13,302 nt of DNA from Promethearchaeota archaeon (GCA_048938025.1 JBHLMP010000070.1:1-13302); one strand, 5' to 3'. Counted from the first letter of the stretch, positions 1 to 13,302 are shown. The notes: generated by a model from the sequence alone, not told the origin. Program-made: numbers and translations.

Positions 1-275
1 CTTTTTGGCGCTTGTGTTATAATTTTTCTAACAATCTCTTCATTGCATAATCCATCTCCTGCAATTAAGGTATCTTTTATATGGTTCTCAAAATTATCGT
101 TTTCATTCCACACACAAGCAATACCACCTTGAGCATAAAACGTATTAGATTCTTTGAGGCTCTCCTTAGTAATTAAAAGTATTTCTTGATCTGGCCTTAA
201 TTTCGCTAGTTTTATTGCTAATGATAATCCGGAGATTCCACCTCCAATTATTAAAATATCAGTTTTAATCTTCAA
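1..275 (-). CDS. nadB: L-aspartate oxidase, 5' part (runs off the left edge; not in the ORF track)
   Basis: Manual translation from TTG at 275: MKIKTDILIIGGGISGLSLAIKLAKLRPDQEILLITKESLKESNTFYAQGGIACVWNENDNFENHIKDTLIAGDGLCNEEIVRKIITQAPK. It shows the FAD-binding GxGxxG plus the SNTxYAQGGIA and HIxDTLxAGxGLC motifs of NadB, and the frame is open to the edge. Confidence 0.9.
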   Translation of the reverse strand, partial: MKIKTDILIIGGGISGLSLAIKLAKLRPDQEILLITKESLKESNTFYAQGGIACVWNENDNFENHIKDTLIAGDGLCNEEIVRKIITQAPK

Positions 276-373
276 AGAGCTCCAAAATTTCCTAATTATT
301 ATTATAAATATATTTTTAATATCCTTAATATAAATGACAATTAATAGTTTTTTCCTAAATGATATCTTTTTAA
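121..373. repeat. Left copy of a diverged direct repeat (nadB 5' end plus upstream region)
   Basis: 121-280 aligns to 12192-12350 at 137/160 identities by hand, with one 1-nt gap. Similarity continues upstream (ttaatatccttaatataaatgacaattaatag vs ttaatatcctaaatataaatgacaattaataa) across indels. Confidence 0.93.
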
Positions 374-499
374 TTCATTAATATTCTCTTGAACCATTTC
401 GACATTTTGCACTTGTTATAATTGGTTAAAAAAATTTAAACTTTCTTCAAAATTAATCATAGCATTATGATAATCTCCAGATAATTCTTTTTCCATCAT
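370..499 (-). pseudogene. Possible relic of the C-terminus of a TPR-like protein
   Basis: Minus frame reads MMEKELSGDYHNAMINFEESLNFFNQL*QVQNVEMVQENINEL. The G-x-Y-x2-A-x3-F-EE-S-L pattern resembles TPR helix B, and there is an in-frame TAA at 416-418. Confidence 0.35.
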
Positions 500-576
500 A
501 TTTATTCCCTGAAATTCTCAATCCAAATTTATTGATGATTTACTTTTTTTTTAAAAAAGAATTAACTTTTTTGGAA

Positions 577-591
577 TAAAAAGTTTAAATA
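577..591 (+). promoter_or_regulatory. Candidate archaeal BRE/TATA for kdgK-BKACE
   Basis: Purine run followed by TTTAAATA (584-591), about 80 nt upstream of the ATG. Weak evidence in this AT-rich background. Confidence 0.3.
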
Positions 592-673
592 TTTCAATAT
601 ATCATTACAAATAATTAATTATTACAGAAAAAACCATAAATTCAAGATTAAAAAGCTCAGAGAGAGATTCATA

Positions 674-1711
674 ATGAGCGGAAAAGTTGTTACTTTTGGA
701 GAAATAATGCTTAGACTTTCCCCCCCTAATTTTAAACGATTTATCCAAACTCGTTCTTTTGATGTAATATATGGTGGAGGTGAAGCTAATGTTGCAGTAT
801 CTTTAGCTAATTATGGAATTCCTGTTGATTATATAACTAAATTGCCCAATAATGAAATCGGTGATGCTTGTATTCAATTCCTTAGACAATTTGGTGTGAA
901 TACGAAGAATATTGTGAGAGGAGGGAATAGAATTGGAATTTATTATCTCGAAATGGGATCTTCTATTCGACCAAGTAAGGTTATTTATGATAGAGCCAAT
1001 TCTGCCATTTCAGAAGCAAATTCTCAAGATTTTAATTGGCACGAGATATTTAAAGGAGTAACCTGGTTTCATTGGACGGGTATTACACCAGCAATTTCTC
1101 AAAATTTAGCAAATATTTGTCTTGAAGCTGTAAAGGTTGCTAAAGAAAAAGAAATCACAGTTTCATGTGATTTAAATTACCGGAGTAAACTTTGGAAATA
1201 TGGAAAAGAACCCAAAGAAATTATGCCTGAATTGGTTAAATATTGTGATGTTGTGATAGGAAATGAAGAGGATGCAGAGAAAGTTTTAGGTATCAAAGCT
1301 CCAGATACAAATGTGACGACGGGAAAGCTAGATGCCGCAAATTTTAGATTTGTAGTTGAAGAAATAGTAAAACAATATCCAAATCTAAAAAGAGTGGCAA
1401 TAACTCTTAGAGGATCAATTTCTGCAAGCTATAATACATGGTCAGCTATATTATATGATGGAAATAATATGTATATAGGCCTTCAATATGAAATAACACC
1501 AATTGTTGATAGAGTAGGTGGAGGTGATTCTTTCATGGGAGGCTTAATTTATGGATTACTCACATACAAAGAAGATCTTCAAAATGCACTTAACTTTGCT
1601 GTTGCTGCCTCCTGTCTAAAACACACGATCTTAGGCGATTTTAATTTAGTTTCGGTGGATGAAGTTCTTAAGTTAATGGGCGGGGATACCTCTGGACGTG
1701 TTTCAAGATAA
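674..1711 (+). CDS. kdgK: 2-keto-3-deoxygluconate kinase (PfkB family)
   Basis: VVTFGEIMLRL N-terminus, GGGEANVA, YDRANSA, DLNYRSKLW, PfkB signature DRVGGGDSF and a GRVSR C-terminus, all typical of bacterial-type KdgK. Confidence 0.9.
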   Translation: MSGKVVTFGEIMLRLSPPNFKRFIQTRSFDVIYGGGEANVAVSLANYGIPVDYITKLPNNEIGDACIQFLRQFGVNTKNIVRGGNRIGIYYLEMGSSIRPSKVIYDRANSAISEANSQDFNWHEIFKGVTWFHWTGITPAISQNLANICLEAVKVAKEKEITVSCDLNYRSKLWKYGKEPKEIMPELVKYCDVVIGNEEDAEKVLGIKAPDTNVTTGKLDAANFRFVVEEIVKQYPNLKRVAITLRGSISASYNTWSAILYDGNNMYIGLQYEITPIVDRVGGGDSFMGGLIYGLLTYKEDLQNALNFAVAASCLKHTILGDFNLVSVDEVLKLMGGDTSGRVSR

Positions 1712-1724
1712 TTAATCCAAGAGG

Positions 1725-2543
1725 ATGAATAAGATAATGAATAAAAATCAAAAGTTAATTATTACTGCTACTACAGCAAATTCATGGATATATCCTGAAG
1801 TTAAGAATTGGCCACAGACAATTGATCAATTAGTCGATGATGTTGTGGCCTGTTATGAGGCTGGTGCTGCGATTATCCATGTTCATCTCCCAAGGGGAGA
1901 AGAAGTTGAAACTGTGAGGCGTATACGGGAAAATTGTGATGTTCTTATCCAAGCTGGTATGTCGAGTGAATCAATCCCTAAAAGAAAAGGTGATTTTGAT
2001 GCCAAACCAGATATGATGTCTGTTATATTAAATCACCATGCTGAACACTTTACTCAAGTAACTGTAGATGTTTTACATCCTTTAGAGGAATTAGAAGAAT
2101 ATTGTGTAAAATGTAAAGCAGCAAATATCCGACCAGAATGGGAAGTTTGGCAACATGGTTCCTATTGGAATTTAAATTATTTAATAGAAAAAGGATTATT
2201 AGAATGGGCAAAACCTCATATCTTAACATTATTTTTTAATTGGCCTGGTGGAACATGGAGTCCTGCTAATTTCGAAGAATATATGCATAGAAAGAGATAT
2301 ATACCACCTAATTCTGTCCATACAGTAAGTGTAATGGGTGAGGATCAAATGAAACTTTTAGTCTTTGTTCTTACACATGGTGGAAACATAAGAATTGGTA
2401 CTGAAGATTATCCTTTTATAAGAAAAGGAGTAACAGCAAAAAATAATGCCGAAATTGTTAAGAATTATGTGAGTATTAGTAAATATCTAGGTCGTGAAAC
2501 AGCAGATCCATCTGAAACTCGTAAAATATTAGGTCTGAAATGA
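1725..2543 (+). CDS. Beta-keto acid cleavage enzyme (BKACE/DUF849, Kce-like), divergent
   Basis: CYEAGAAIIHVH (Zn-binding HxH), RPEWEV, GGNIRIGTED, and a NAEIV...GRETADPSETRKILGL C-terminus. It lies 13 nt after kdgK; the true start may be the ATG at 1737. Confidence 0.85.
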   Translation: MNKIMNKNQKLIITATTANSWIYPEVKNWPQTIDQLVDDVVACYEAGAAIIHVHLPRGEEVETVRRIRENCDVLIQAGMSSESIPKRKGDFDAKPDMMSVILNHHAEHFTQVTVDVLHPLEELEEYCVKCKAANIRPEWEVWQHGSYWNLNYLIEKGLLEWAKPHILTLFFNWPGGTWSPANFEEYMHRKRYIPPNSVHTVSVMGEDQMKLLVFVLTHGGNIRIGTEDYPFIRKGVTAKNNAEIVKNYVSISKYLGRETADPSETRKILGLK

Positions 2544-2581
2544 TTTCCTTATTCTAACTTATAATAAACTTTAAAAAAACT

Positions 2582-2710
2582 TTAACATTAAAAGATGAAT
2601 TAGCCATAATAAAAGGAGCAGGAGCAGAACTAGGGGAATGTGCTACTCTACAATTTGCTAAAAATGAAGTAAAATCAATTTGTAAATCTCTCACTGATTC
2701 AGTAAATTAG
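2582..2710 (+). pseudogene. Decayed N-terminal fragment of an SDR
   Basis: LTLKDELAIIKGAGAELGECATLQFAKNEVKSICKSLTDSVN* aligns without gaps to the SDR at 9695 (MKLKGKVAIITGAGAGIGEATALLFAKEGAKICCNSLTESAK) at 21/42 identities. It has no start codon and stops early. Confidence 0.8.
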
Positions 2711-2837
2711 AACTAAATAATGTTTTTTAAATTATCATTAGTTTCTAGTAAAAGGCAAAAAAGTTTTATAAACACTTAACGCAAAGGTATTATTATCTTA
2801 TCTTCCTCTTATTTTAAACAAAAACTAAAAGAAGTGT

Positions 2838-3737
2838 TTGGAAAAAATGAATGGTTCATTTTATTTATTAGGTGTTTTTTTAGCTATCTTATCTGGAAGT
2901 ATAAATAATATAGGTTTAGTGCTGCAAAAAAAAGTAGTTAATGAAGTATCCCCTGAAGCAAAATTCTTTAGAAGTTTAGTGAAAAAGCCCCTTTGGATAA
3001 CAGGGTTATTAATGGAGCTAGCAATAGGTTCAGTTTTTTTCATGATTGCTCAAATTTATATTGGTCCTGCCTTAATACCAGGCTTGATGGCATTCGGTTT
3101 AATTTTTCTTGCTATAGGATCTGTTAAAATTGTGGGTGAAACTTTAAAAAAGGAAGAAATAATCGGAATTATTTTAATGATTATAGCGATCTTTTTATTA
3201 GGCCTTTCTGAATTAAGTATAGACATCGCTGGCATAAACATTTTAGCTATTGATCTTGTTCTAAACATGATAATCTTTACAATTGTTTTATTTTTAGGTT
3301 CCTTGATATGTGAGATTTTACAGAGAAAAGTTGAAAAATTAAAAGGAATATTATTAGCAATATCCTCAGGATTCCAATTTTCCTTAACTAATTTTTGGAT
3401 CGCACCTCTAATGGCGGTAATTGCTCATGTTTTTGGAGGAAATGCTACTTTAGGCGAACTTTTCTTATTTCTAGCTTGTGCAGTTATTTTAATTGTAGCA
3501 AGTATCCTAGGGATAATGAAAATTTCACAATCATTTCGAGTAGCTAACGCTAGTCGAATGATTCCTATTCAACAAGTACCTATACAAGTTACTCCAATAA
3601 TAGCATACTTTTTTGTTTTTACGCTAACGCCTCCTACATTCTTTCCTATCATTTATGTGATTTTTGGGGTTTCTTTAATCCTATTAAGCTCGTTTCTGCT
3701 AGCAAAAAGGCAAGCACAATTAGAAGCTATAAAGTAA
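2838..3737 (+). CDS. Polytopic membrane protein of the DMT superfamily (NIPA/EamA-like transporter)
   Basis: About 9 hydrophobic segments. The GVFLAILSG..NNIGLVLQKK, PLWITG and GETL..EEIIG patterns are typical of DMT/NIPA-like proteins. Confidence 0.7.
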   Translation: MEKMNGSFYLLGVFLAILSGSINNIGLVLQKKVVNEVSPEAKFFRSLVKKPLWITGLLMELAIGSVFFMIAQIYIGPALIPGLMAFGLIFLAIGSVKIVGETLKKEEIIGIILMIIAIFLLGLSELSIDIAGINILAIDLVLNMIIFTIVLFLGSLICEILQRKVEKLKGILLAISSGFQFSLTNFWIAPLMAVIAHVFGGNATLGELFLFLACAVILIVASILGIMKISQSFRVANASRMIPIQQVPIQVTPIIAYFFVFTLTPPTFFPIIYVIFGVSLILLSSFLLAKRQAQLEAIK

Positions 3738-3747
3738 GGTCATAAAA

Positions 3748-4542
3748 GTGGCAAAAATAATATTCTTCCAACCACATCCGGACGACTTAGAAATAAACTG
3801 TGGGCATCTTATCCATTACCTTGCAATAAAAAGTAAAAATAATCATATTATTAAGATCGCTTCAATCACTAAAGGTGAATATGGCCTTCCTAGTGCTCAA
3901 TATGATAAATTTAAAGGTGATTTGCTTGCAAAAGTCAGAACACGAGAATTGTACAATGCTCAAAGCATTCACGGAATACCTCCAGAAAATATACACTTTT
4001 TTGGATATGTTGATGGTTTAATAGAATTTACCAGAGATTTTGTAAATGAGATTGCTGAATATTTGAAGAAGGAAAAACCTGATGTAATTTTCGCACCAGA
4101 AGCAATTTATACGCCTTATTACCACATGGATCATGTAAATACAGGTAGGGCAATATATTACTGTATTCATAACAAATTAATCAACTTTACTCCAACACTT
4201 TATTTTTACTCAACTTTAAGCCCAAATTTTTTCTTTGGTTTTAAGAAAGAGGGTTTTAATTTAATCGATCAACTACTAGCTTGTCATAAAACACAATTTT
4301 GGTTAATCAATTACGTAAAATGGACTTATAAACCAAAAACAAGATTTGCAGGAAGAAAGTTAAGAGGTTGGAAATATGCCGAGAAATACCGAAGAGTTTA
4401 TTTTCATAAAAATAATGAAAATAAGAATAAACCATCATTGATGGTTAAAATGTTAAGCCATTGGTATTCGAGCATGCCTTGGTTTAAAGCTAAATACCCA
4501 CAAGATGTGTTAGAAGACCTTAAAAAAAAGGGAAAAATCTAA
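3748..4542 (+). CDS. PIG-L/LmbE-family Zn-dependent de-N-acetylase
   Basis: PHPDD, TKGEYG, RTRE, HMDH and CHKTQ motifs; GTG start 10 nt after the transporter stop. Confidence 0.88.
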   Translation: MAKIIFFQPHPDDLEINCGHLIHYLAIKSKNNHIIKIASITKGEYGLPSAQYDKFKGDLLAKVRTRELYNAQSIHGIPPENIHFFGYVDGLIEFTRDFVNEIAEYLKKEKPDVIFAPEAIYTPYYHMDHVNTGRAIYYCIHNKLINFTPTLYFYSTLSPNFFFGFKKEGFNLIDQLLACHKTQFWLINYVKWTYKPKTRFAGRKLRGWKYAEKYRRVYFHKNNENKNKPSLMVKMLSHWYSSMPWFKAKYPQDVLEDLKKKGKI

Positions 4543-4692
4543 TTATTTAAGAAAAATATTAATAATGTTTTTAGTGAAAATAAGTACAATAAAACTATAA
4601 ATAAAACAAAAGCAAAATAACTTCAATATATATCAAAGAACTTAATTATTAATTTGATAATTTAATTACTAAAAGAAAAGAGGTGTATTTTA

Positions 4693-5034
4693 TTGGCCAC
4701 TCTTGAAGAAGTTAAAGAAGCCTTAAATAAATGGGTAAAGATTTTAGACGATCCAGAGATTGCGGATGAATTTGAAGGATTTAATAAAACTATGCAATTT
4801 GAATTTTCAGACTTAAATTATAAATTAAAAATGATTTTTGAAAACAAAACAGCAAGATTAGAGGAAGGTTTTGATGAAAATGCTGAAATGGGTTTAGAAA
4901 TTAATTCTGATCTTTTTGTAGGAATTGCTACCGGTGAAGTTGATCCAATGGAAGCGTTTATGGAAGGAGAACTTAAAACTAAGGGCGATATGAACTCATT
5001 ACAGAAATTAGAAATCTTCATGGATATTGAATAG
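4693..5034 (+). CDS. SCP2 sterol/lipid-binding domain protein (stand-alone)
   Basis: The C-terminal GEVDPMEAFMEGELKTKGDM matches the SCP2 consensus. SD-like GAGGTG precedes a TTG start, and the protein is highly acidic. Confidence 0.85.
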   Translation: MATLEEVKEALNKWVKILDDPEIADEFEGFNKTMQFEFSDLNYKLKMIFENKTARLEEGFDENAEMGLEINSDLFVGIATGEVDPMEAFMEGELKTKGDMNSLQKLEIFMDIE

Positions 5035-5211
5035 CGAAGTTTACTAAGGATTTATTTATTTTTTTCAAATACTGTTTTTTTTGTTTGGGAAAATGAGAAG
5101 ATTTGAAGGAGATAATATGAATTAATTTAAGAATCAAAAATTTAGGAATATTGAAAATAAGTATTTTCATAAGAAAATATATAAAAAAAATTTATTATGG
5201 TATGATGAGAA

Positions 5212-6336
5212 ATGGAACCAATTGGTTTTAATAAAGAAAGAACGTGTAATATTTTAGAAAAGCACGATATAGATGTGCTAATTGCATCTACTCCCGTAAA
5301 TGTTTTTTATTTAACAGGTTTACCAACATTACATGTAGCTCCAAATCCTATTTTATATGTTTTATATAATCAATACCCTAGTTTATCTTTAGTACGGAGA
5401 GACGGTGAGGAAAGTTTGATAACATGGATTAATTTTCGTAGCGTAGATAAATTTTCATGGGTAAGTGATATTCATGGAATAGGATCTCCTAAAGGTGCTA
5501 TGGTATCAGTATCTGATAAGATTGAAAAATGGGGTTTATCAAATAAAAAGATAGGATATGAGTCTCTTATGCCTTCTTATCAATCTGAATATCTTAGGAT
5601 TAGATTTCCAAGTGCTACATTTATCAATGGCGATCAAGCTTTTTTAGATATGCGTTTAATTAAATCTGAAGAGGAGGTAAAACGAATAAAAAAATCAACA
5701 GAAATTTCTGAAAAAGCTATAATTAATATGATTGAAGCATCTTATGAAGGAATTACTGACTTAGAATTATTACAAATCGCCCGGAGAACAATCGTTAATG
5801 AAGGTGCAGAAGGATGGGATCATTTAACAATGAATTTGGGACAATCTGATCCTGAAGCACCAGGAGTAGGAACTACTCTGAAAGCAGGAGATCTTAATAG
5901 ATTTGACATTGGAACTATTTGGAAAGGATATGTCTCAGATGTTAGTCGAGAGTTAGTGATAGGACAGATACCTGAAGGAGCTGAGGAAGTTATGAATAGA
6001 TTGATAAAAGTTCAAGAATTCTGTGAAGAAAATATTCACCCTGATTTAAATATAAAAGAATTGTATAATAATGCTATTAAATTTCATAAATCTTTAACAA
6101 AGAAGGGGAGAGCTTTTATAACGGGCCATAGTATAGGGTTAGAATGTGAGGAAACTCATCTATTTAGCCCAATAAAGAAATTAGATAGATTGTTTGAAGA
6201 GAACATGGTACTTGATATTGAGATCTGGCAGAATTTCAAAAATCAAGGTTTAGTGGGAATTGAAGATTGTTATAGAATAACTAATAATGGGTGTGAGAGG
6301 CTCTCAAGTTTAGATAAGAATATTTTTGTTAAATGA
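5212..6336 (+). CDS. M24 (pita-bread fold) metallohydrolase, Xaa-Pro peptidase/creatinase-like, with an atypical active site
   Basis: Creatinase_N-like N-terminus (NVFYLTG), RLIKSEEE linker, and metal ligands in DIG..YVSD, GHSIG, DIE and IED. Confidence 0.85.
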   Translation: MEPIGFNKERTCNILEKHDIDVLIASTPVNVFYLTGLPTLHVAPNPILYVLYNQYPSLSLVRRDGEESLITWINFRSVDKFSWVSDIHGIGSPKGAMVSVSDKIEKWGLSNKKIGYESLMPSYQSEYLRIRFPSATFINGDQAFLDMRLIKSEEEVKRIKKSTEISEKAIINMIEASYEGITDLELLQIARRTIVNEGAEGWDHLTMNLGQSDPEAPGVGTTLKAGDLNRFDIGTIWKGYVSDVSRELVIGQIPEGAEEVMNRLIKVQEFCEENIHPDLNIKELYNNAIKFHKSLTKKGRAFITGHSIGLECEETHLFSPIKKLDRLFEENMVLDIEIWQNFKNQGLVGIEDCYRITNNGCERLSSLDKNIFVK

Positions 6337-6400
6337 AAAAAAACCTCAAAACCATAAACTATATTAATTAATTAGTGAAAAATTATTGGAGGATAATTGA

Positions 6401-7537
6401 ATGAGTGATTTTGTAAAGTTTGGAGTAATAGGAGCGGGTTCTGCCGTTTGGCGGTTCCATAAGCTAGGTACCAAAAATAATCCGCAAATTAAATTTATTT
6501 CGGGATACGATGTTAACGAGAAGAAATTAGCTAAAGCAGCCAAATATTCGAAGTTAGAATCTTTTTCGAAGTTAGATGACTTTTTAAAAAGTGATATTGA
6601 TGCTGTTATGGTTTTAGTGCCACACTATCTACACAAAGATTTAGTTATTGCTGTGGCTGAGGCTGGAAAACATGTCATCTGTGAAAAACCTATGGCGACC
6701 ACGCTTGAGGAATGTGATGAGATGATAGCAGTAACTAAAAAAGCTGGTATAAAGTTTATGATAGCTGAGAATCATAGATTCCTACCAGCCCATTTATTTA
6801 TAAAAGATGCAATAGAGCGTGGATTTATTGGTGATGTATTTCTTGGTCGAACTTATGAAGGTGCCTATGCTAGTTCGCAATTCTTTGATACTGATAATTG
6901 GAGTTTTACCTACACCAAGGGTGGTGGCGGTGTAGTTTCAGATCAAGGAGTCCATAAATTTACTATGTTAAATTGGTTTCTTGGGGAAGTAGATTCAGCT
7001 CAATGTTGGTTAAGTAAAACTTTGAAATCTCCCCCAAATAAAGGAGAAGATACTGCCATAATTCTATTGCGTTATAAATGTGGAGCTACTGTGACTGTTG
7101 ATATTTCCTCTAGTACGGTGCATCCGCTTACGAATAAAACAGAATTGCATGGAACTAAGGGTACTATTTTTGAAGATCATGACTGGGAAAGACCAGTTAA
7201 ATTATTTTCGTCACATCCTGAGGCTGAGGTTAAGGGAGAGTTTTATAGTCCGCAAATTGAACACGGACCATTTCCTGACTATTATAAAATTTCTATGGGT
7301 CATGAAGATGCATATTTTGCTGAATGTATTTTAGAAGATAAGAAACCAGAATTTACACCAGAAGAGGCAAGGCAAGGTGTTGCAGTGGTTCTCTTAGCAT
7401 ATCTATCCGCCAAAAACGGAAGAACGACTTCGATGGATGAATTAATGGAAATTTATAAAAAAGAAGGTACAAGAAGCATATTAGAAGGGCTTGGAGAAGT
7501 AACACAAAAAAATTATAAAAATCTAAATTGGGATTAA
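6401..7537 (+). CDS. Gfo/Idh/MocA family NAD(P)-dependent oxidoreductase
   Basis: GVIGAG Rossmann motif, AGKHVICEKP, GGGVVSDQGVH; SD GGAGG upstream. Confidence 0.92.
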   Translation: MSDFVKFGVIGAGSAVWRFHKLGTKNNPQIKFISGYDVNEKKLAKAAKYSKLESFSKLDDFLKSDIDAVMVLVPHYLHKDLVIAVAEAGKHVICEKPMATTLEECDEMIAVTKKAGIKFMIAENHRFLPAHLFIKDAIERGFIGDVFLGRTYEGAYASSQFFDTDNWSFTYTKGGGGVVSDQGVHKFTMLNWFLGEVDSAQCWLSKTLKSPPNKGEDTAIILLRYKCGATVTVDISSSTVHPLTNKTELHGTKGTIFEDHDWERPVKLFSSHPEAEVKGEFYSPQIEHGPFPDYYKISMGHEDAYFAECILEDKKPEFTPEEARQGVAVVLLAYLSAKNGRTTSMDELMEIYKKEGTRSILEGLGEVTQKNYKNLNWD

Positions 7538-7629
7538 AAAAAAACTTATGAAATCTTTTTTTCTTTTAAATAATCTAATTCTATTCCTATATTTGAATAT
7601 AAAGTATATGTTAATTGTTTAAAATAAAT

Positions 7630-9561
7630 TTAAATTTGTGTAATTTTTACCGTATGGATTCCATCTTCTTTAATAGTTATAGATACTAATTGATTTTCTT
7701 TATCTTTTTCTATTTCACCCTCAGAAATACTTATATCATAACCGTTCGGATATTGAATTCTTGGAACAAAAAGAATTGTTGAAGCTTTTATAGAAGTATC
7801 GCCATCAAACTTAAAATAAAAGCATCCCTCCTTTATATCAAATTCCATTTTTAATGGAATTCCTGTACATCGAATGAAACGTGGGCGGCAGAAGCCCTTA
7901 ATTGCTCTTCCACCACTATTTATATCATCTGGATCAACTTGTTGATCTTTACTAAAAATTGATAAATCTTCCAAATTCCACAAATCTCCCCATTCGTTAA
8001 TATTATCTGCAGTATAATTCCATTGTAATGCATGTAATAGATTAGCATCTAATGCATTATAATAATTGTTTAGTGCTTTTGTATGTGTTTTCCAAGCTTC
8101 ATCTGGTTCAGTTTTTAACTTCTCATAAGCTTCTTTTTTATTTAAATCATAAGGCAGTCCAAATTCTCCGATTATTGTTGGAATTCCTCCAAAAAAAGAA
8201 GTAGAGTAATTTTTAATATTTAATAACTGTGTGATAAACATTTGTTGTACATTTTTTTTACCAATGACTGGATTTCCTGTAATAAGATTATAATTAGCTT
8301 TAAGCATTGCTCTTTTCGTACCAGTCGTAGCTACATCGTACCAGTGGGCAGCATGTACGCTATTAGGTGGTATTTCTAATTCTAATGACTCTCCTTTCAT
8401 CACACTTTCCATAGGTCCTGTAAAAAATATTATTGCTTTTGAAAATTCACTTCGGATAGCTTCAGTATAGGTGTTTAGGAAAGGAGACAAATAATCTCTA
8501 TAAAAATCAATTTTTGCTCCATTTTTATAAATGAAATAGTCGTTTTTCAAAATCTTTGGATTTCCGTCCTTATCTAATCCCCATACACCTTCTTTTTTCC
8601 AGATATCTTCAAATCCTTCTAACCAACATGATATTTTCACCTGATTTAGCTCTTCTTTTCTAGTTTCTTTAATACCAAATCTCTTAACTTCTTGATATCC
8701 AATAGTTCTATTATATCCTGCTCCAGTAAGCATAGCATCAATTGGTGTAAAAACATACCCCAATACTTCAGATTTTCCTTCCCATTCACTTCCATCTACA
8801 AATCTGCCAATCCAACCTTCAGATGGTTCATTTAGTATATCAAATCCTAATATATATGGATTATCTTTTATTCTTATGGCTATTTGCTTTATTGTATCAA
8901 TAAAATGGTTTTGTAAGTAATCCTGAGCGTTAATTCCATCAACCATACATGAAGGAGCAAATTGCTTTCCCCCAAAGAATAAAGTCCACATCATTCCATT
9001 CGCAAATCTATAAGTATTCCCCATCCAATGCATTGGAAGATATTTTGTAAGGTCATCAGGGTCATATCTGTGTTGCATTACAAATGCTGCCTCTGAGTTT
9101 TCAAATTTAGTATAATCTAAACCAACTTTTTCAAATGTCCAACAAGGGGCTCCATCTCCTCCTGTCATCCTACTCCAAACATCTTGATGAGGATCTATAA
9201 ATATATAAAAACCATATTCTCCAGCAATCTTTAAAATTTCTTCTAAATAATCAAGATATTCTTTATCATATTTTTTTGGTCCACTATGTTCAATTGCTTC
9301 CCAAGTAACTAAAAATCTAAGACAATTAAAGCCCCAGTGTTTTAATCGTGAAAAATGTTCATCGGCATCTTTTAAAGGGAATGGACGGCCAACAAAAGAA
9401 ACATTTTTGTGATCTCTAAAATCAGTTTTTATGTGTGTTGCCCCATTGGGAGAAAATGGGATTTTTGAGCTTCCTCCCAAATTTACACCTCTAAGTAGAA
9501 CTGTTCGACCTTTTTCATCAACAAATCGCTCATTATAAATTCTCAATGTCATTTCTATCAA
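7630..9561 (-). CDS. Glycoside hydrolase family 5, endoglycoceramidase-related (GH5_12-like glucosylceramidase/steryl-beta-glucosidase)
   Basis: LRGVNLGGSSKIP, SFVGRPFPL, WEAIEH, DPHQDVWSR..GGDGAP, acid/base NEP, nucleophile IGEFG, WNYTADN...WNLEDLS and a GH5_C-like tail. No signal peptide is evident. Confidence 0.88.
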   Translation of the reverse strand: MIEMTLRIYNERFVDEKGRTVLLRGVNLGGSSKIPFSPNGATHIKTDFRDHKNVSFVGRPFPLKDADEHFSRLKHWGFNCLRFLVTWEAIEHSGPKKYDKEYLDYLEEILKIAGEYGFYIFIDPHQDVWSRMTGGDGAPCWTFEKVGLDYTKFENSEAAFVMQHRYDPDDLTKYLPMHWMGNTYRFANGMMWTLFFGGKQFAPSCMVDGINAQDYLQNHFIDTIKQIAIRIKDNPYILGFDILNEPSEGWIGRFVDGSEWEGKSEVLGYVFTPIDAMLTGAGYNRTIGYQEVKRFGIKETRKEELNQVKISCWLEGFEDIWKKEGVWGLDKDGNPKILKNDYFIYKNGAKIDFYRDYLSPFLNTYTEAIRSEFSKAIIFFTGPMESVMKGESLELEIPPNSVHAAHWYDVATTGTKRAMLKANYNLITGNPVIGKKNVQQMFITQLLNIKNYSTSFFGGIPTIIGEFGLPYDLNKKEAYEKLKTEPDEAWKTHTKALNNYYNALDANLLHALQWNYTADNINEWGDLWNLEDLSIFSKDQQVDPDDINSGGRAIKGFCRPRFIRCTGIPLKMEFDIKEGCFYFKFDGDTSIKASTILFVPRIQYPNGYDISISEGEIEKDKENQLVSITIKEDGIHTVKITQI

Positions 9562-9694
9562 ATTACTATTAATTCTATTTAAGAGTTATTATCAGTAAAT
9601 TACTCTCTTTCCATTAAAGTTTTATGAAATAAAAATCAAATTTTATTTAATTTTTATAATTTTTATCCACATCTATTCTAAATTTAATCTAACA

Positions 9695-10456
9695 ATGATA
9701 AAAAAAATGAAACTAAAAGGAAAGGTTGCTATAATAACGGGAGCTGGAGCGGGTATTGGTGAAGCAACTGCTCTTCTTTTTGCCAAGGAAGGTGCAAAAA
9801 TTTGTTGCAATTCATTAACCGAGTCAGCTAAGAATGTCGTAGGAAAAATTAAATCCTCGGGAGAAGATGCAATATTTGTTCAAGCAGACATTTCAGTGGA
9901 AGAGGAAGCGAATCGTATAATTGAAAAAACCATAGAATTTTATGGTAAAATTGATATTTTGTTTAATAATGCAGGAATTGTACTTGGTGGAGCAATTGAT
10001 ACAATATCTACAGAAGACTGGGATAAAACTATGGCTGTCAATGTACGTGGTATATATTTGGTAACGAAATACGCGATTCCTTATCTACGAAAAACGCGAG
10101 GTGTAATTATAAATAATTCTTCTTCAGTTGCATTTAAAGGTGTAAAAGATAGAGCTGCATACACAGCGTCAAAAGGAGCAGTTCTATCAATGACCAGAGC
10201 TATGGCTGCAGATTATCTTGAAGATAAAATCAGAGTAAATGCAATATGTCCTGGAACTACAGATACACCATCATTGACAGAAAGGATTAAAAGTAGGGGA
10301 GGAAATTTTAAAGAAGTAAGGCAACAGTATATCAGTCGCCAGAGATTAGGAAGGCTTGGGATGCCCGAAGAAATAGCAGAAGGAGTACTATTTCTTACTG
10401 TGAATGAATTCTGTACCGGTGTAAGTCTCTTAGTTGATGGAGGTATGACAATGTAA
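9695..10456 (+). CDS. Short-chain dehydrogenase/reductase, similar to 2-keto-3-deoxy-L-fuconate dehydrogenase/BDH2-type enzymes
   Basis: TGAGAGIG, NNAG, YTASK, CPGTTDTPSL..RI and RQRLGRLG.PEEIA. The family call is solid; the substrate is inferred. Confidence 0.88.
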   Translation: MIKKMKLKGKVAIITGAGAGIGEATALLFAKEGAKICCNSLTESAKNVVGKIKSSGEDAIFVQADISVEEEANRIIEKTIEFYGKIDILFNNAGIVLGGAIDTISTEDWDKTMAVNVRGIYLVTKYAIPYLRKTRGVIINNSSSVAFKGVKDRAAYTASKGAVLSMTRAMAADYLEDKIRVNAICPGTTDTPSLTERIKSRGGNFKEVRQQYISRQRLGRLGMPEEIAEGVLFLTVNEFCTGVSLLVDGGMTM

Positions 10457-10499
10457 TAATTAAATAAGTAAATTTATTTTGAAATCGGGAGTGATAAAT

Positions 10500-10559
10500 A
10501 TGGTTAAACACATAGGGATTGTTGCTTGCAACGCAACAATTAAAAAGGCTATCGAATAA
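10500..10559 (+). pseudogene. 19-aa mini-ORF with a strong SD; possible internally deleted Asp/Glu racemase relic
   Basis: GGGAGTGA-taaat-ATG then MVKHIGIVACNATIKKAIE*. MxxHIGIVAC resembles the N-terminus of one aspartate racemase subgroup (from recall). Confidence 0.45.
10518..10540. terminator. Inverted repeat between the convergent SDR genes
   Basis: attgttgc-N7-gcaacaat forms a perfect 8-bp stem. A-runs at 10558-10572 give T-tracts on the minus strand. Confidence 0.35.
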
Positions 10560-10577
10560 AAAATAAAAAAAAGATTA

Positions 10578-11354
10578 TTATTGAGTTGTCCAACCACCAT
10601 CAATTCTTAGATCCGCACCCGTTATGTAGGAAGATTCATCCGTCGCTAAATAGAGTATACCCGTAGCTATTTCTTCTGGTGTTGCCCAACGTCCCATTAC
10701 ACCTTCTTGTTCAAATTCTTTTTTAACTTCTTCATATGTTACCCCTCTATCTCTCGCTTGTTTCGCAACATCACTTTGTAGCATTGGTGTGTCTGTAGCA
10801 CCAGGACTTACACTATTCACCCGAACATTATAAGGTGCCAAATCTAACGCTAAGGCTCTTGTATAACCTAGCACACCTGCTTTTGTGGAACAATAATTAG
10901 CATGGGCAACTTGACCAATATGAGCCGCTACAGAAGCTAATGTAATTATAGACCCTGATTTTTGCTTTTTAAAATATGGTACAGCATATTTACATGTATA
11001 ATGAGTTCCTTTTAGATTAACGTCAATCAATAAATCATAATCTTCATCTGGAAAAGTTTCTATTGGTCCAACTCGTACCACTCCTGCATTTACAATTAAA
11101 ACATCAATTCTTCCATATTTTTCAATAGTTGAATCGATCATATTCTTAACTTCGTCTGGATTCCTTACATCTACTTTCATGATAGTGGTTTTATCTTTTC
11201 TATCTTTAATCAATTCAAGAGTTTCTTTTAAACCTTCTTCACTTATATCTGAGAGGATTTGAATTGCACCTTCTTTCGCGAATAAGATTGCGGTAGATCT
11301 TCCAATTCCGGAAGCAGCTCCAGTTAATACAACAATTTTATCTTTAACTCTCAA
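10578..11354 (-). CDS. Short-chain dehydrogenase/reductase (classical, likely NAD-preferring)
   Basis: TGAASGIG, Asp after beta-2 (ILSD), VNAG, YCSTK, PGATDT, IDGG; TTG start after GGGAG. Confidence 0.92.
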   Translation of the reverse strand: MRVKDKIVVLTGAASGIGRSTAILFAKEGAIQILSDISEEGLKETLELIKDRKDKTTIMKVDVRNPDEVKNMIDSTIEKYGRIDVLIVNAGVVRVGPIETFPDEDYDLLIDVNLKGTHYTCKYAVPYFKKQKSGSIITLASVAAHIGQVAHANYCSTKAGVLGYTRALALDLAPYNVRVNSVSPGATDTPMLQSDVAKQARDRGVTYEEVKKEFEQEGVMGRWATPEEIATGILYLATDESSYITGADLRIDGGWTTQ

Positions 11355-11449
11355 TCTAACTCCCTTTTTTATAAAATGTTAAAATTTTATATATTTCTTA
11401 TCTAATAAATGATCCGATATAAACAGGTTTCATAAAAAAAATTTTATTC

Positions 11450-11554
11450 TTAGACATAATCATAATATTCCTCAGTGATTTCTGGATCATCTAACTTTTT
11501 ATGAATGTCCAAAGCCCTGCGAAGAAAATTTTTGGCGATGTTGTCCTTATCCAA
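11450..11554 (-). pseudogene. 34-aa ORF overlapping the eda stop; possible truncated gene
   Basis: TTG at 11554 gives MDKDNIAKNFLRRALDIHKKLDDPEITEEYYDYV*. It shares AL..x.LDDPEI..E with the N-terminus of the SCP2 protein at 4693. Confidence 0.35.
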
Positions 11555-12182
11555 TTTCTGAATGAATTAATGAGATAGCCGTTTTAGTTAATTTTTTAAT
11601 CTCCTCAAATTGTCCAGTAGATATCAAATCTTTTTTTACTATCCAACTTCCTCCACACGCAAGAACATTACTTAGTTTCAAATAATCAATTAAAGAATCA
11701 ATATTTATTCCACCAGTTGGTACAAATCTCATTTCTGGATATGGCCCTGCCAAAATTTTAAGCATCATAATTCCTCCAGAAAGATTAGCTGGGAAAAATT
11801 TAACGATTTTTAAACCTTTATCAAGCGCCCATTCCACTATTGTAGGTGTATTAACACCGGGAATAATAGGAATTTTGTTATTTACACAATAATCAACAAT
11901 TTTTGGGTTAAATCCTGGTGTAACAATAAATTTTGCTCCTGTTTTTATAGCATCCTTCACCTGATCAACTTTTAGAACTGTACCCGCTCCTACTAATATA
12001 TCTGGTAATTCAATAGTTAATCTCTTAATAGATTCTGCCGCAGCTTCAGTTCTATATGTTACTTCAATAATGGGAAGTCCTGCTTCAATTAATGTTTTCC
12101 CTAAAGGAACTGCATCATCCGCGTTATTTATAACTGCAACAGGTATAAGTTTTAATTCTTTTATTCTTTTATATACATCCAT
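11547..12182 (-). CDS. eda: KDPG/KHG aldolase
   Basis: IEVTYRT, VGAGTV, FIVTPG, VKFFPA (Schiff-base Lys), PTGGI and ACGGSW motifs. Confidence 0.95.
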   Translation of the reverse strand: MDVYKRIKELKLIPVAVINNADDAVPLGKTLIEAGLPIIEVTYRTEAAAESIKRLTIELPDILVGAGTVLKVDQVKDAIKTGAKFIVTPGFNPKIVDYCVNNKIPIIPGVNTPTIVEWALDKGLKIVKFFPANLSGGIMMLKILAGPYPEMRFVPTGGINIDSLIDYLKLSNVLACGGSWIVKKDLISTGQFEEIKKLTKTAISLIHSEIG

Positions 12183-12191
12183 TTATTGACC

Positions 12192-12345
12192 ATACCTCCT
12201 TAAGCATAAAATTTATTAAATTTTTTTAAGCTTTCCTTAGTTATTAAAAATATTTCTTGATCTGGGATTAATTTCGCTAGCTTTATTGTCAATGATAGTC
12301 CGGAGATTCAACTCCAATTATTAGAATATCAGTTTTAATTTTCAA
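12192..12345 (-). pseudogene. nadB: nadB 5' fragment (~51 codons), frameshifted and nonsense-mutated
   Basis: TTG at 12345 reads MKIKTDILIIG, then a 1-nt deletion near 12310. The original frame continues ISGLSLTIKLAKLIPDQEIFLITKESLKKFNKFYA*GG, with CAA changed to TAA at 12199-12201. Confidence 0.92.
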
Positions 12346-12503
12346 AGAATTCCAATAGTCCTCAATCATTTTTGTAAATTTATTTTTTCATATTAATATT
12401 TAAATTAATATCCTAAATATAAATGACAATTAATAATTTTTTCTTAAAGTGATTAATTAAATAAGTATTATCCTTTTTAGACATTAACGATATCTTTTTT
12501 AAT
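12192..12503. repeat. Right copy of the nadB 5'/upstream direct repeat
   Basis: About 86% identical to 121-280. The upstream blocks 12405-12453 and 12489-12503 match 316-363 and 361-373, separated by insertions. Confidence 0.9.
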
Positions 12504-12588
12504 ATTTCTGCTTTTTATTGAATAAGGTATTTGTATTAAAAAACACATTTATTTCTAAAATAAACGGAAATGCTAAGTAAAATAAATT

Positions 12589-13113
12589 TTGATGAGGATT
12601 AAATTGACAAAAATCCATAATGTGCTTTTTTTATGTTCTGGAAACACTTGCAGGTCACCCTTTGCTGAATATTTTGCAAAATGGTTAAAAGAAACTAAAT
12701 ATAAAGGTGAACTGAAAGGAATTCATTTTGATTCTGCTGGTCTTTATCATTATTATGAGAAACCTCAAGCGGGAACATTGAAATATCTTAATTCAAAAGG
12801 AATTAATATAAGCGATTTTAAGGCGAAAGATGTTGAGAAAGATTTAATTGAAAACCAAGACCTCATATTAGGATTTGAAAGAAAATGGCATATTAACAAA
12901 TTCAAAAGAAAATTTAAGAACATTGAGAATTTGGATAAGAAAGTTTTTCTTTTAATGGAATTTGTTGGTGAAACTGAAAATTTAGAAATTAAAGACCCTT
13001 TTTACTTGGATGAGTTAGAATATAATAAAGTTTTGCAAAGAATAGAAATAGCTGTTATCAAAACAATAGAGAAAATTCTAAAAATAAATCATTCAGAAAA
13101 AGAAAAAGAATGA
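12589..13113 (+). CDS. Low-molecular-weight protein-tyrosine phosphatase / ArsC-fold protein
   Basis: P-loop VLFLCSGNTCRSPFAE, DSAG and general-acid IKDPF. The exact start is uncertain (12589, 12592 or 12604). Confidence 0.9.
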   Translation: MMRIKLTKIHNVLFLCSGNTCRSPFAEYFAKWLKETKYKGELKGIHFDSAGLYHYYEKPQAGTLKYLNSKGINISDFKAKDVEKDLIENQDLILGFERKWHINKFKRKFKNIENLDKKVFLLMEFVGETENLEIKDPFYLDELEYNKVLQRIEIAVIKTIEKILKINHSEKEKE

Positions 13114-13120
13114 TATGATT

Positions 13121-13302
13121 CTATTCCGTAAGAAATGCATATTTTTGAGTAAAATTTTTCTTGATTAAATATTTGGTTGATTCGAAAGGTGTCATATTGC
13201 CCACAAATTCTTTAAGATCTTCATAAAACTTATCTTCAAAATCCTTTGAAAAATTATCGAGTTTACGAGTTAAAACAGGCAGATCCATTGATGAAATTAA
13301 AG
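13121..13302 (-). CDS. 3' end of a hypothetical protein entering from the right edge
   Basis: Open 59-codon frame LISSMDLPVLTRKLDNFSKDFEDKFYEDLKEFVGNMTPFESTKYLIKKNFTQKYAFLTE*, with the TAG at 13121-13123 converging on the phosphatase. Confidence 0.65.
   Translation of the reverse strand, partial: LISSMDLPVLTRKLDNFSKDFEDKFYEDLKEFVGNMTPFESTKYLIKKNFTQKYAFLTE

Follow-up and report, generated by a model that had tools for sequence, protein, structure and literature searches.

Why should the start of nadB occur twice, at the two ends of a catabolic gene cluster, on an archaeal contig? The window analyzed here, 13,302 nt in length, is a complete contig (G000:C19) from a metagenome bin of 88 contigs. 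Its source organism is an uncultured Asgard archaeon of the Lokiarchaeia (Promethearchaeota), most likely in the GTDB-level genus g22. The island between the two copies, a set of genes for sugar-acid breakdown located between the phosphatase gene and nadB, is a real but fairly ordinary gene gain via host recombination. In the reading that we consider reasonably probable, it is a recombinase-free flexible island, which would have been founded by an illegitimate join, exchanged by recombination in its flanks, and would express its aldolase gene eda from a relic promoter and a GGAGGT motif.

The duplicated nadB start

About 260 nt, made up of nadB codons 1-52 and ~107 nt of upstream DNA, occur twice in direct orientation and 12.07 kb apart, as the initial annotation had claimed and as both the repeat search and BLAST confirmed. 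The repeat search returned three collinear direct blocks at 121-241/12192-12312 (85% identical, spacing 12071 nt), 239-317/12309-12387 (D2; 82%, spacing 12070 nt), and 316-359/12405-12448 (D3; 93%, spacing 12089 nt). When the left end was compared with the whole assembly by BLAST, 121-363 matched 12192-12453 at 79.1% over 263 columns (E 2.7e-61). The longest exact run common to both copies is 20 nt, and 134 of 155 comparable bases (86.5%) are identical in the coding part; all repeat comparisons rest on ~150-260 nt.

The left copy lies in an open nadB (3..275, minus strand), of which 91 aa are present before the gene runs off the contig end (FAD_binding_2, Pfam, E 6e-17); the copy's coding half spans 121-275. 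The duplicated gene is that of L-aspartate oxidase (NadB). The 91 aa of the window (70% aa identity) and 407 aa of the related locus L050, which are open over their whole length, align stop-free and at 70-73% to the full NadB on contig G000:C59, which scored 688.9 bits against a cutoff of 629 for the NadB equivalog NF006567. Upstream of the left start codon, 276..363 (minus strand) holds a nadB promoter region of imported type, represented in D2 and D3 and including a promoter block at 316-359. It is followed by 364..560 (minus strand), a pseudogene with an in-frame stop that is the 3'-end relic of a TPR/SIR2_2 gene. This relic is homologous to the end of a TPR gene of 729 aa located ahead of nadB on G000:C59, and 74-77% identical to the TPR tails of genomes G018, G041, and G067.

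The coding half of the right copy (12193..12345, minus strand) is a relic of the resident nadB 5' end and is broken, again as first described. Codon 12 has lost 1 nt, and codons 13 and 49 are stops. Its upstream half (12346..12453, minus strand) is a native nadB promoter region, collinear with the nadB upstream DNA of genomes G138, G132, and G136. Compared with this type, which right copies and empty sites have in common, the left-type upstream shows 12 fixed substitutions and, in addition, indels.

Nineteen codons differ between the copies, with 9 synonymous and 7 nonsynonymous differences, 2 stops, and 1 frameshift. The annotated count of about nine synonymous differences was exact, and the argument built on it, that the copies are alleles from different lineages, fails because 8 of the 9 are single-lineage changes that arose after the junction existed. 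Codon 2 is the sole synonymous site (1 of 9) that separates all five left and right copies first compared, and the left copy of genome G112, compared later, carries the right-copy state there. Across these five copies (C19, L050, and L045) the coding part holds 1 fixed left/right difference in 155 nt. Left and right copies differ at 3 of 44 positions in the promoter block and at 14-17 of 37 positions (38-46%) just outside it. Judged from these alignments, the coding halves are near-identical at their root and the signs of different origin lie upstream of the start codon. In a tree, the C19 right copy clusters with the left copies (support 85/90), while the L050 right copy is empty-site-like over nt 1-75 and left-copy-like over nt 76-153.

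Near-identical coding halves at the root and a C19 right copy among the left copies are not predicted by a simple import of a foreign nadB start. For an import to give such halves, the donor must have had almost the same coding sequence, or gene conversion must have followed.

Genes of the island

The TPR relic meets DNA upstream of the kinase gene at the left inner junction J4 (560..590, no strand assigned), which was located by alignment with the clusters of six relatives; homology to their pfkB upstream promoter region begins here. J4 is common to L050 and G112. The first gene (674..1711, plus strand) encodes a pfkB-family sugar kinase (Pfam PfkB, E 2e-34), most likely a 2-keto-3-deoxygluconate (KDG) kinase. 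Its NCBIfam matches, both below cutoff, were the kinase half of a KHG/KDPG aldolase/sugar kinase fusion (E 1e-161) and a KDG/KDGal kinase (E 5e-67). It is followed on the plus strand by genes for a BKACE-family beta-keto acid cleavage enzyme (1725..2543; PF05853, E 4e-45), a cluster-specific protein of 299 aa (2838..3737), a PIG-L family deacetylase (3748..4542; PF02585, E 7e-20), an SCP2-domain protein (4693..5034; PF02036, E 1.5e-13), an M24 metallohydrolase with a creatinase/prolidase N-terminal domain (5212..6336; PF00557 and PF01321), and a Gfo/Idh/MocA oxidoreductase (6401..7537; PF01408 and PF22725), the top NCBIfam match of which, inositol 2-dehydrogenase, was below cutoff. The 299-aa protein matched no family in Pfam, NCBIfam, or PADLOC; its relatives occur in 28 loci, mostly titled Promethearchaeota or uncultured archaeon, with three under other titles.

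A GH5 glycoside hydrolase with a GH5 C-terminal domain (7630..9561, minus strand; PF00150 and PF18564) has a weak NCBIfam match to endoglycoceramidase I. Two short-chain dehydrogenases with adh_short_C2 domains follow, SDR1 (9695..10456, plus strand; E 3e-59) and SDR2 (10578..11354, minus strand; E 2e-65), the latter missing from the short island of G112. The last gene is eda (11547..12182, minus strand), encoding a KHG/KDPG aldolase (PF01081, E 5e-70; NCBIfam PRK05718 and TIGR01182, both above cutoff). With the window query, eda was not found in 3 of 3 empty-site genomes, and the sole eda and pfkB matches of G112 lie in its island.

Mobility genes and repeats

No recombinase or transposase domain was found by Pfam in 13 ORFs of 91-643 aa, out of 17 listed window ORFs of at least 60 aa, which agrees with the first description of the cluster as an integrase-less island. 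Neither tRNA nor tmRNA genes were found in the window, and no Rfam family reached its gathering score. Inverted repeats were absent from the island ends and occurred only scattered (26-50 nt, 70-80% complementary). Beyond both flanks, in G112:C80 and L045, the identified genes are chromosomal (DeoC, YdjM; a 543-aa protein without family match, LMWPc, and Macro).

Two classes of element do not fit. A site-specific integrative element is contradicted by the lack of an integrase or recombinase in the scanned ORFs and among the identified flank genes, and a transposon or composite IS by the lack of a transposase domain and of inverted repeats at the island ends. The repeat is also unlike the short, identical attachment sites of an integrative element, being ~260 nt long and 79-87% identical, with an exact run of at most 20 nt and no tRNA or tmRNA.

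The locus in related genomes

Three close relatives with a NadB 93-95% identical (aa) to that of the island lineage, namely G138, G132, and G136, have an empty site. In all three an intact nadB stands back to back with the phosphatase gene at a distance of 206-244 nt, the ancestral arrangement that the initial annotation had proposed; the corresponding gap on the right-copy side of the window is 243 nt. Many more distant relatives also have nadB and the phosphatase gene as neighbours. The empty-site DNA is collinear with 12192-13302 at 85-89%, and the empty-site alleles share the upstream region of the right copy throughout. The right copy and all DNA upstream of it are native spacer. The spacer on the phosphatase side (12461..12588, no strand assigned) is 86.8% identical to L045 and collinear with the empty-site genomes. 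It leads to the right-flank gene for a low-molecular-weight phosphotyrosine phosphatase family protein (12589..13113, plus strand; Pfam LMWPc, E 9e-24), which in L045 and G112 is followed by conserved chromosomal genes.

The empty-site alleles, which represent the native locus of close relatives, contain no TPR tail. Among 135 family genomes both the left-type upstream and the TPR relic occur only in island contigs, and the search of these genomes revealed no donor that has an upstream of the left type. Since the left upstream is of another type and the TPR relic is missing from the native locus, the new DNA brought its own nadB promoter region. To this extent the earlier proposal that an ~11.8-kb segment carrying its own nadB start recombined in was borne out. 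It did not arrive as one foreign block of 11.8 kb, because in relatives the cluster and eda lie at separate chromosomal places, eda being on other contigs in genus g1, and because in G112 the same pair of junctions encloses only 4.1 kb from copy to copy.

The island is present in C19, L050, and G112/L045 and absent from G138, G132, and G136, which have the same flank genes, so that its presence varies among close relatives at one syntenic place, as in a flexible island. It is polymorphic, with two flank backgrounds and two sizes (4.1 or 11.9 kb). In the right flank, L045 and G112, which bear the island, have 97% identity to the empty G138. The right-flank tree places C19 with the empty G132 and G136 at 98/100 support, and its identity to L045/G112 is only 90%. 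The eda genes are 96-97% identical in all pairs. The histories of cargo and flank disagree, which is likewise characteristic of flexible islands. A G136-type empty-site allele occurred in samples X1 and X2 at depths of 61.5 and 74.7, respectively (exact 30-letter match). Scanned in 500-nt windows, C19 and L050 show a mosaic of divergence, which is mostly between 0.6 and 10%; three windows are at 15-34%, two of which are inflated by indels. Along 1221 nt of nadB no switch of ancestry could be seen, apart from a lower identity to G138 in nt 1-150 (0.88, against 0.94-0.97).

Right copy and expression of eda

The right copy ends 10 nt from the start codon of eda. At the right inner junction J2 (12183..12199, minus strand), which was set against the native eda upstream of four relatives, the last 8-10 nt of native eda upstream are fused to nadB codons 49-52. 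At the junction, nadB codons 50-52 and the native eda upstream have AGGT..TT in common, a match short enough to be due to chance. J2 is common to L045, L050, and G112. A GGAGGT motif at 12199-12194, 11 nt before the eda ATG, is retained in 4 of 4 right copies.

The relic evolves like neutral DNA, with 80.5% identity between C19 and L045 compared to 96.1% for the adjacent eda. A block of 66 nt with TATA-like elements (12395..12460, minus strand) is invariant between the same two (66/66), in DNA that is otherwise 53-87% identical on its flanks and 53% identical between block and relic. Over 47 aligned columns of three right copies the block shows zero differences, and none was seen in the alignment of the G112 right copy. 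It is homologous to the left-copy block before nadB and to the nadB upstream of the empty sites. As the block is invariant while the relic decays, eda is probably driven by the old nadB promoter; alternatively, the phosphatase gene, which is divergent, may be what the block serves.

Origin of the island

The favoured course of events starts from a resident locus with nadB back to back with the phosphatase gene, ~244 nt apart. An illegitimate join at a short microhomology would have linked the ribosome-binding region of eda to resident nadB at codon ~51, while the other end of the insert would have supplied a different nadB promoter region with the TPR relic. The ~260-nt direct repeat would result from nadB being kept intact and the resident 5' end being left behind as a relic. 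Later, ordinary homologous recombination in the flanks may have carried the island into related genomes or removed it from them, and recombination with paralogous clusters may have reshaped the interior into the 4.1-kb and 11.9-kb versions. Gene conversion, or crossovers within the repeat, presumably homogenised the coding halves on at least one occasion. At present, eda would be expressed by the relic promoter block and by the GGAGGT derived from nadB Gln-Gly-Gly codons.

A duplication in situ is unlikely. Here, in an ancestor whose nadB was still preceded by the TPR gene, a single insertion through a staggered break or replication template switching would have doubled the TPR tail, the promoter, and 155 nt of nadB on either side of the inserted genes, with the TPR body next to the right copy deleted later and the empty sites of today being revertants by recombination between the two copies. 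It accounts for the single fixed difference in the 155 coding nt, the grouping of the C19 right copy with the left copies (85/90), and the finding that the two copies are mutual best matches within the window. TPR loss is also repeated in genus g1, with none in 11 and partial remains in 2 of 20 fetched loci. However, one TPR-less spacer is found in right copies and in each of the three empty-site alleles alike, and 38-46% of 37 positions differ just outside the block beside <1% in the coding part at the root, which copies that began identical should not show. At least three clean reversions (G138, G132, and G136) and the co-occurring G136-type population would also be needed.

Even less likely is a mobile unit with portable homology, in which recombination between the repeats yields a circle with a hybrid copy that re-inserts at the nadB start of a host in the manner of Campbell, restoring nadB. 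The direct repeats that bound the island, the identical eda inner junction in two flank backgrounds, and island and empty-site forms in the same samples are consistent with it, as is the similarity of C19 and L050, which is far higher in the interior and the left non-coding part (97% over 276-575) than in the right relic (82.5%). However, an ordinary double crossover in the flanks gives the same pattern, and no back-joint from 12192-12453 to 121-363 occurred among the joints listed in contigs. The two repeats now agree at just 79-87% of positions, and no exact run exceeds 20 nt. Right copies differ from one another throughout the relic, as far as nt 145, so no tract was carried along with a circle.

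Assembly integrity

The closest kin of C19 are in g22, a sister genus of the one to which the bin belongs, and a native nadB-phosphatase locus is already present in the bin, with the full nadB on G000:C59; C19 is therefore probably mis-binned, which has no effect on the structure of the contig. Contigs of X1 mapped to the window span 180-686 and 11316-12406 without differences, and a contig of X5, from another study, does so for 12063-12315. The same junctions recur in three further assemblies (L050, L045, and G112:C80), with the entire structure in L050 at 92-98% identity. C19 and L050 are short contigs, and each of their bins has another nadB-phosphatase locus; only G112:C80, in which both junctions lie within 20.6 kb of chromosomal synteny, has the island in an otherwise single-locus genome. 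The repeat and island could be a chimera of strains, as the window is a whole short contig ending 120 nt past the left copy, its bin has a contamination of 5.1% and a second nadB and phosphatase gene, and X1 and X2 contigs deviate from it at 35, 37, and 38, but such an artefact of assembly or binning is extremely improbable with error-free contigs from two studies bridging both junctions, identical junctions in three more assemblies, and only 20 nt in the longest exact run common to the copies.

Comparison with known systems

Flexible genomic islands, in the population-genomic sense, are exchanged by homologous recombination in conserved flanks in marine bacteria and haloarchaea. The nadB island resembles them in its variable presence at one place, syntenic flanks, catabolic cargo, lack of integrase, tRNA, and inverted repeats, and in the discordant histories of flank and cargo. 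It differs in its host, an Asgard archaeon, and in keeping its founding scar, a duplicated gene start of 260 nt with upstream halves of different origin. As in homology-facilitated illegitimate recombination (HFIR), the insert would be joined by microhomology within nadB at one end, and at the other it merges into nadB itself. HFIR is defined from bacterial transformation and conjugation experiments, whereas the present case is read from its product, and the near-identical nadB coding halves depart from a simple HFIR prediction.

Integrase-borne islands and proviruses insert in the end of a tRNA, tmRNA, or protein gene and restore the gene with their own copy. In the nadB island, too, the end of the target gene is duplicated, the gene is intact, and the displaced end is a relic on the far side. 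However, such elements encode a recombinase of the tyrosine or serine type, and their attachment sites are short and identical. The nadB island has no recombinase among its scanned ORFs and no tRNA; its repeat is ~260 nt long and 79-87% identical, and the upstream halves are of different derivation. In Vibrio cholerae, sequential displacement of effector/immunity modules is reported to leave orphan gene remnants (PMC5361080). There, as at nadB, incoming DNA recombines beside a conserved gene and leaves remnants, although the organism, genes, and selective setting are different.

If the proposed expression of eda holds, the island would add a route of KDG kinase and KDPG aldolase to its host, together with hydrolase and dehydrogenase genes that feed it.

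Results

A repeat search of the window resolved the direct repeat into three collinear blocks, at 121-241 and 12192-12312 (85% identity), 239-317 and 12309-12387 (82%), and 316-359 and 12405-12448 (93%). A single BLAST alignment of the two copies (121-363 vs 12192-12453) gave 79.1% identity over 263 columns with an E-value of 2.7e-61. The left copy forms the beginning of an open nadB frame on the minus strand (3..275); the 91 aa encoded match the FAD-binding domain found in the succinate dehydrogenase / aspartate oxidase family (Pfam), and the frame runs beyond the end of the sequence. The right copy is broken by a 1-nt deletion in codon 12 and by stops at codons 13 and 49, and the start codon of eda lies 10 nt beyond its end. 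In the coding part, 21 of 155 bases and 19 codons differ between the copies (9 synonymous, 7 nonsynonymous, 2 stops, and 1 frameshift), so that the recount matched the nine synonymous codons of the initial annotation. Its statement that no recombinase is encoded agreed with a Pfam scan of 13 ORFs of the window, which found no recombinase or transposase domain. Neither tRNA genes nor Rfam families were found in the window.

A chimeric assembly at the repeats, raised as a concern in the initial annotation, is dismissed by difference-free contigs across both junctions and by the same junctions in three further assemblies. Logan contigs of sequencing run X1 span 180-686 and 11316-12406 without any difference from the window, as does, for 12063-12315, a contig from a different study (run X5). 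X1 may be the sample of origin and hence not data-independent, though the assembler differs. The longest exact run common to both copies is 20 nt, and a de Bruijn graph therefore cannot have jumped between them. Among the further assemblies, locus L050 contains the entire structure with 92-98% identity to the window and nadB open over 407 aa, locus L045 contains eda, the relic (the broken right copy), the phosphatase gene, and 6 kb further at 90% identity, and contig C80 of genome G112 contains both junctions. L045 and G112 represent one lineage, with flanks 99.9% identical and three flank genes 100% identical in amino acids.

The source organism of the window (the whole of contig C19 of bin G000) is an Asgard archaeon, to which the rules of bacterial promoters do not extend. 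The bin comprises 88 contigs with a completeness of 96.7% and a contamination of 5.1%. Its own phosphatase, TPR/SIR2_2, and nadB locus is divided between two contigs that part where the TPR gene begins: three tandem phosphatase genes lie at the end of C26 (L024:6875-7851), and C59 opens (L023:3-3855) with a TPR/SIR2_2 gene of 729 aa and, after it, a complete nadB of 523 aa. This locus shares 94-96% amino acid identity with the relative G012, in which phosphatase, TPR gene, and nadB are contiguous. The nadB and phosphatase of C19 share only 70 and 65% amino acid identity with the bin's own copies, respectively, and the remainder of the C19 nadB is not present in the bin. In a family-wide search, the nearest relatives of C19 were found in the sister genus g22 and not in the bin's genus g1. 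For this reason, and mainly because the bin has its own locus so close to that of G012, C19 is most likely a mis-binned contig. The genome of L050 carries a second, complete nadB 233 nt from three phosphatase genes, and L050 is likewise most likely mis-binned. A first tree with g1 relatives only, in which the two copies formed the sister group of the nadB native to the bin (C59/G012), was superseded by the family-wide search and the g22 alleles.

Twenty g1 loci were fetched for nadB and phosphatase matches on one contig, except G044, which was taken for its nadB match, and both genes lay inside the fetched stretch in 19 of them. Gaps computed from coordinates were about 112-390 nt without a TPR gene in 11 of these 19 loci and 662 nt in one; one locus has a 195-aa TPR remnant between phosphatase and nadB, and six have a full TPR gene there. 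In G006, nadB and phosphatase lie far apart. The presence of the TPR gene is patchy on the NadB tree of g1, which marks the spacer between nadB and phosphatase as a place of repeated gain or loss. Across loci L025-L044 the 729-aa gene, which starts with an SIR2_2 domain, is whole, partial, or missing in a pattern that departs from the NadB tree, and a NAD-consuming SIR2-type domain adjoining a NAD-synthesis gene is a curious pairing. Against PADLOC, the protein gave generic TPR matches and weak SIR2 matches only (E about 1e-4), and no defence system is claimed. About 17 g1 loci, with or without the TPR gene, share an AT-rich motif, strongly conserved and about 40 nt long, some 45-85 nt upstream of the nadB start, which is probably a promoter or operator of nadB in the genus.

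The ancestral neighbourhood predicted in the initial annotation, with nadB beside the phosphatase and no island, was found in three g22 genomes (G138, G132, and G136). Their nadB is intact, with 93-95% amino acid identity to the 407 aa of L050, and the phosphatase stands back to back with it, 244, 244, and 206 nt away, respectively; in the window, 243 nt separate the relic start from the phosphatase (12589..13113, plus strand). The empty-site DNA is collinear with window 12192-13302 at 85-89% identity. In a ten-copy alignment, the upstream DNA of the empty-site alleles is of the right-copy type over its full length, and none of these alleles has a TPR tail. The left-copy type is marked by a TPR relic (~364-560), by a promoter-proximal stretch of reduced length, and by a promoter block with three substitutions. 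It is common to the left copies of C19, L050, and G112 and occurs only in these island contigs among 135 family genomes, and the sole other matches of the TPR relic are TPR gene ends of g1 (74-77%). Because the empty-site alleles carry the right-copy upstream and the left type is limited to island contigs, the right copy with its upstream represents the resident locus, and the DNA before the present-day nadB most likely came from elsewhere. This supports the central proposal of the initial annotation, that the incoming segment carried its own nadB start: the left-type upstream with its TPR relic, a nadB promoter region, is non-native and the right type native. In g22, a 543-aa protein without Pfam match lies between the first and second phosphatase genes (L045:1490-3121, L092-L095); it does not occur in the bin's C26 locus.

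The synonymous differences had also been taken as a sign of alleles from different lineages, a reading that did not hold with more copies. Five of the nine codons (8, 17, 35, 38, and 40) are unique to the right copy of C19, two (19 and 50) are unique to its left copy, and one (22) is recurrent in two lineages, so that eight do not separate left from right. Codon 2 separates five copies (left and right of C19 and L050, right of L045) and is no longer fixed with the left copy of G112. When L045 was added, 11 of 20 inter-copy differences were unique to the right copy of C19 and 7 were common to both right copies; with L050, 1 of 155 columns, in codon 2, separated the left copies (C19, L050) from the right copies (C19, L050, L045). 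The promoter block and promoter-proximal stretch hold 12 fixed substitutions plus indels in 84 nt between left and right copies. Since only codon 2 separates the copies, and is not fixed, the coding halves were almost identical at their root, and the evidence for different origins sits upstream of the start codon. Such near-identity is not predicted by simple import.

The right copy of C19 clusters with the left copies (support 85/90). In L050, nt 1-75 of the right copy are empty-site-like (4-6 differences to G136 and G138 vs 8-11 to left copies), and nt 76-153 are left-copy-like, with 3 differences to its own left copy. From about 150 nt, this mixed affinity suggests gene conversion or crossovers inside the repeat. 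In a NadB mosaic test with 52-aa windows against seven relatives, the nearest relative never switched. Seven of the 11 changes unique to the right copy of C19 are synonymous, an excess, and changes on the two relic branches numbered 10, 5, and 12 at codon positions 1, 2, and 3, with no clear departure from even. A history of one event and subsequent decay, drawn from three- and five-way comparisons, was dropped as the full story because the empty-site alleles show the right upstream to be native and the left not.

At the right inner junction, the last 8-10 nt of the native eda upstream are fused to nadB codons 49-52, and nadB and the eda upstream have a short AGGT..TT match in common there. 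The junction is base-identical in the four island contigs (C19, L050, L045, and G112) and thus arose once. In four g1 relatives, the native eda upstream holds, a few bases ahead of the ATG, a ribosome-binding site of the GGTG type; in the island, the nadB Gln-Gly-Gly codons provide GGAGGT 11 nt upstream of the eda ATG, which is kept in all four right copies. At the left inner junction (~560-590), the TPR relic abuts the conserved promoter region of the kinase gene, as it does in L050 and G112.

The promoter block at 12395-12460 contains TATA-like elements and is the homologue of the block before nadB in the left copy. Between C19 and L045 it is identical at 66 of 66 positions, compared with 80.5% for the relic, 53% with a 17-nt indel for the stretch between relic and block, 86.8% for the spacer towards the phosphatase, and 82% at the third positions of the phosphatase codons. 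Within the block all four right copies agree, and empty-site alleles differ from them at about one to three positions. The block could act on the divergent phosphatase gene, instead or as well. As it was conserved after nadB was cut off and lies on the strand of eda with no gene between, it is best explained as being kept under selection and now putatively driving eda.

Across about 950 nt of the right flank, which take in the spacer, the phosphatase, and DNA further out, L045 and G112 with their island share 97% identity with the empty-site genome G138. C19, which also bears the island, clusters there with the empty-site genomes G132 and G136 (98/100) and shares only 90% identity with L045 and G112. 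The eda identity is 96-97% in all three island pairs. C19 and L050 are 97% identical in the left non-coding stretch (276-575) and 82.5% in the right relic, and their cluster divergence per 500 nt is mostly 0.6-10%, with three intervals at 15-34%, two of them inflated by indels. Stretches at 2501-3000 (before the 299-aa gene) and 10501-11500 (around SDR2) are diverged or with indels at 22-34% per 500 nt, compared with 1-5% elsewhere. The eda-SDR2 interval of L050 (L050:12600-12690) has about 71 nt extra compared with the window, which complete a 32-aa minus-strand ORF whose start is missing in C19.

In runs X1 and X2, a contig links the nadB start to 12377 onward via 30 other letters, at depths of 61.5 and 74.7, respectively. 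These letters match the empty-site allele of G136 (locus L095) exactly, so an empty-site population coexists with the island-bearing one in both runs, and this co-occurrence is why island contigs break in the shared flanks. A joint from 193 to 12312 occurs in X2 contigs (side 89). A C put in behind 12311 in run X6 was considered as an empty-site allele; it fits a right copy without the frameshift of C19, as in L045 and L050, equally well and was not used. No circle junction was found among the contig joints listed, which, being from contigs alone, is no evidence of absence. Joints from 4557 to 9621, 2804 to 11367, 566 to 7618, and 12410 to 6360 link distant cluster parts in the same samples and suggest further cluster architectures in co-occurring populations, one like the short form of G112.

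The G112 island spans 4.1 kb between the copies and holds only the kinase, BKACE, SDR1, and eda, without window 2544-9551 and 10531-11497. Because of this short form, and because the BKACE-SDR adjacency is also found in clusters elsewhere, the island interior was probably swapped by recombination with paralogous clusters. Some 30 g1 genomes hold the window cluster (about 575-11371), with nucleotide identities reaching 88-89%; there it never adjoins nadB, a second GH5 gene precedes the kinase, and eda lies on yet other contigs. In the bin, G000:C38:54317-57163 holds a second GH5 gene directly followed by BKACE (68 and 74% amino acid identity to those of the window), a short kinase-less cluster type. 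The proposal that a segment recombined in at nadB was right in outline; its cargo turned out to be chromosomal DNA of the family's own, in at least two pieces.

The kinase (674-1711) and eda match the kinase half and the aldolase half of the curated "KHG/KDPG aldolase/sugar kinase fusion" model NF041633, respectively, and eda scores above the curated cutoffs for KHG/KDPG aldolase. In the window, kinase and aldolase (11547-12182) are separate genes at opposite island ends, with 9.8 kb between them; the gene directly after the kinase in L069 and L070 is distantly eda-like. The other island genes encode a GH5 hydrolase, a PIG-L deacetylase, an M24 hydrolase, a Gfo/Idh/MocA dehydrogenase, and two short-chain dehydrogenases. 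From family knowledge, the island genes resemble a pathway that would lead from a glycoside via 2-keto-3-deoxygluconate to pyruvate and glyceraldehyde-3-phosphate. With the window's eda as query, no eda was found in the three empty-site genomes (completeness 100, 82, and 89%), and no kinase was found in G138 and G136. In G112, the sole eda and kinase matches lie in the island.

Discussion

The island is a flexible genomic island with an HFIR-like scar, an already known kind. It is old enough to be found in three lineages and two sizes, and it moves, or is lost, through ordinary host recombination. We regard as improbable a recombinase-free mobile unit with its own "attachment homology", in which the nadB-start copies would recombine to a circle that host recombination re-inserts at other Lokiarchaeial nadB starts, repairing nadB. 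If it existed, Asgard archaea would pass metabolic modules between species without an element-encoded enzyme.

A limited literature search turned up no paper describing nadB-associated islands of Asgard archaea, from which no absence from print is claimed. As a practical warning, island contigs of ~13 kb break at their shared flanks and land in wrong bins.

To our knowledge, little is known of gene gain and loss in Asgard archaea. The locus is a clean natural case in which the empty site and island forms of two sizes have all been sampled, at NadB identities of 93-95%. Its junctions are legible base by base, and the wild Lokiarchaeial populations show signs of both homologous recombination and gene conversion. 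The interest of the locus is moderate and lies in its Asgard host and in the unusually legible reuse of a housekeeping promoter and ribosome-binding site, those of nadB, that appears to serve the newly arrived eda. The locus also marks a trait that varies between co-occurring sediment populations, namely a GH5 hydrolase together with the route through KDG kinase and KDPG aldolase.
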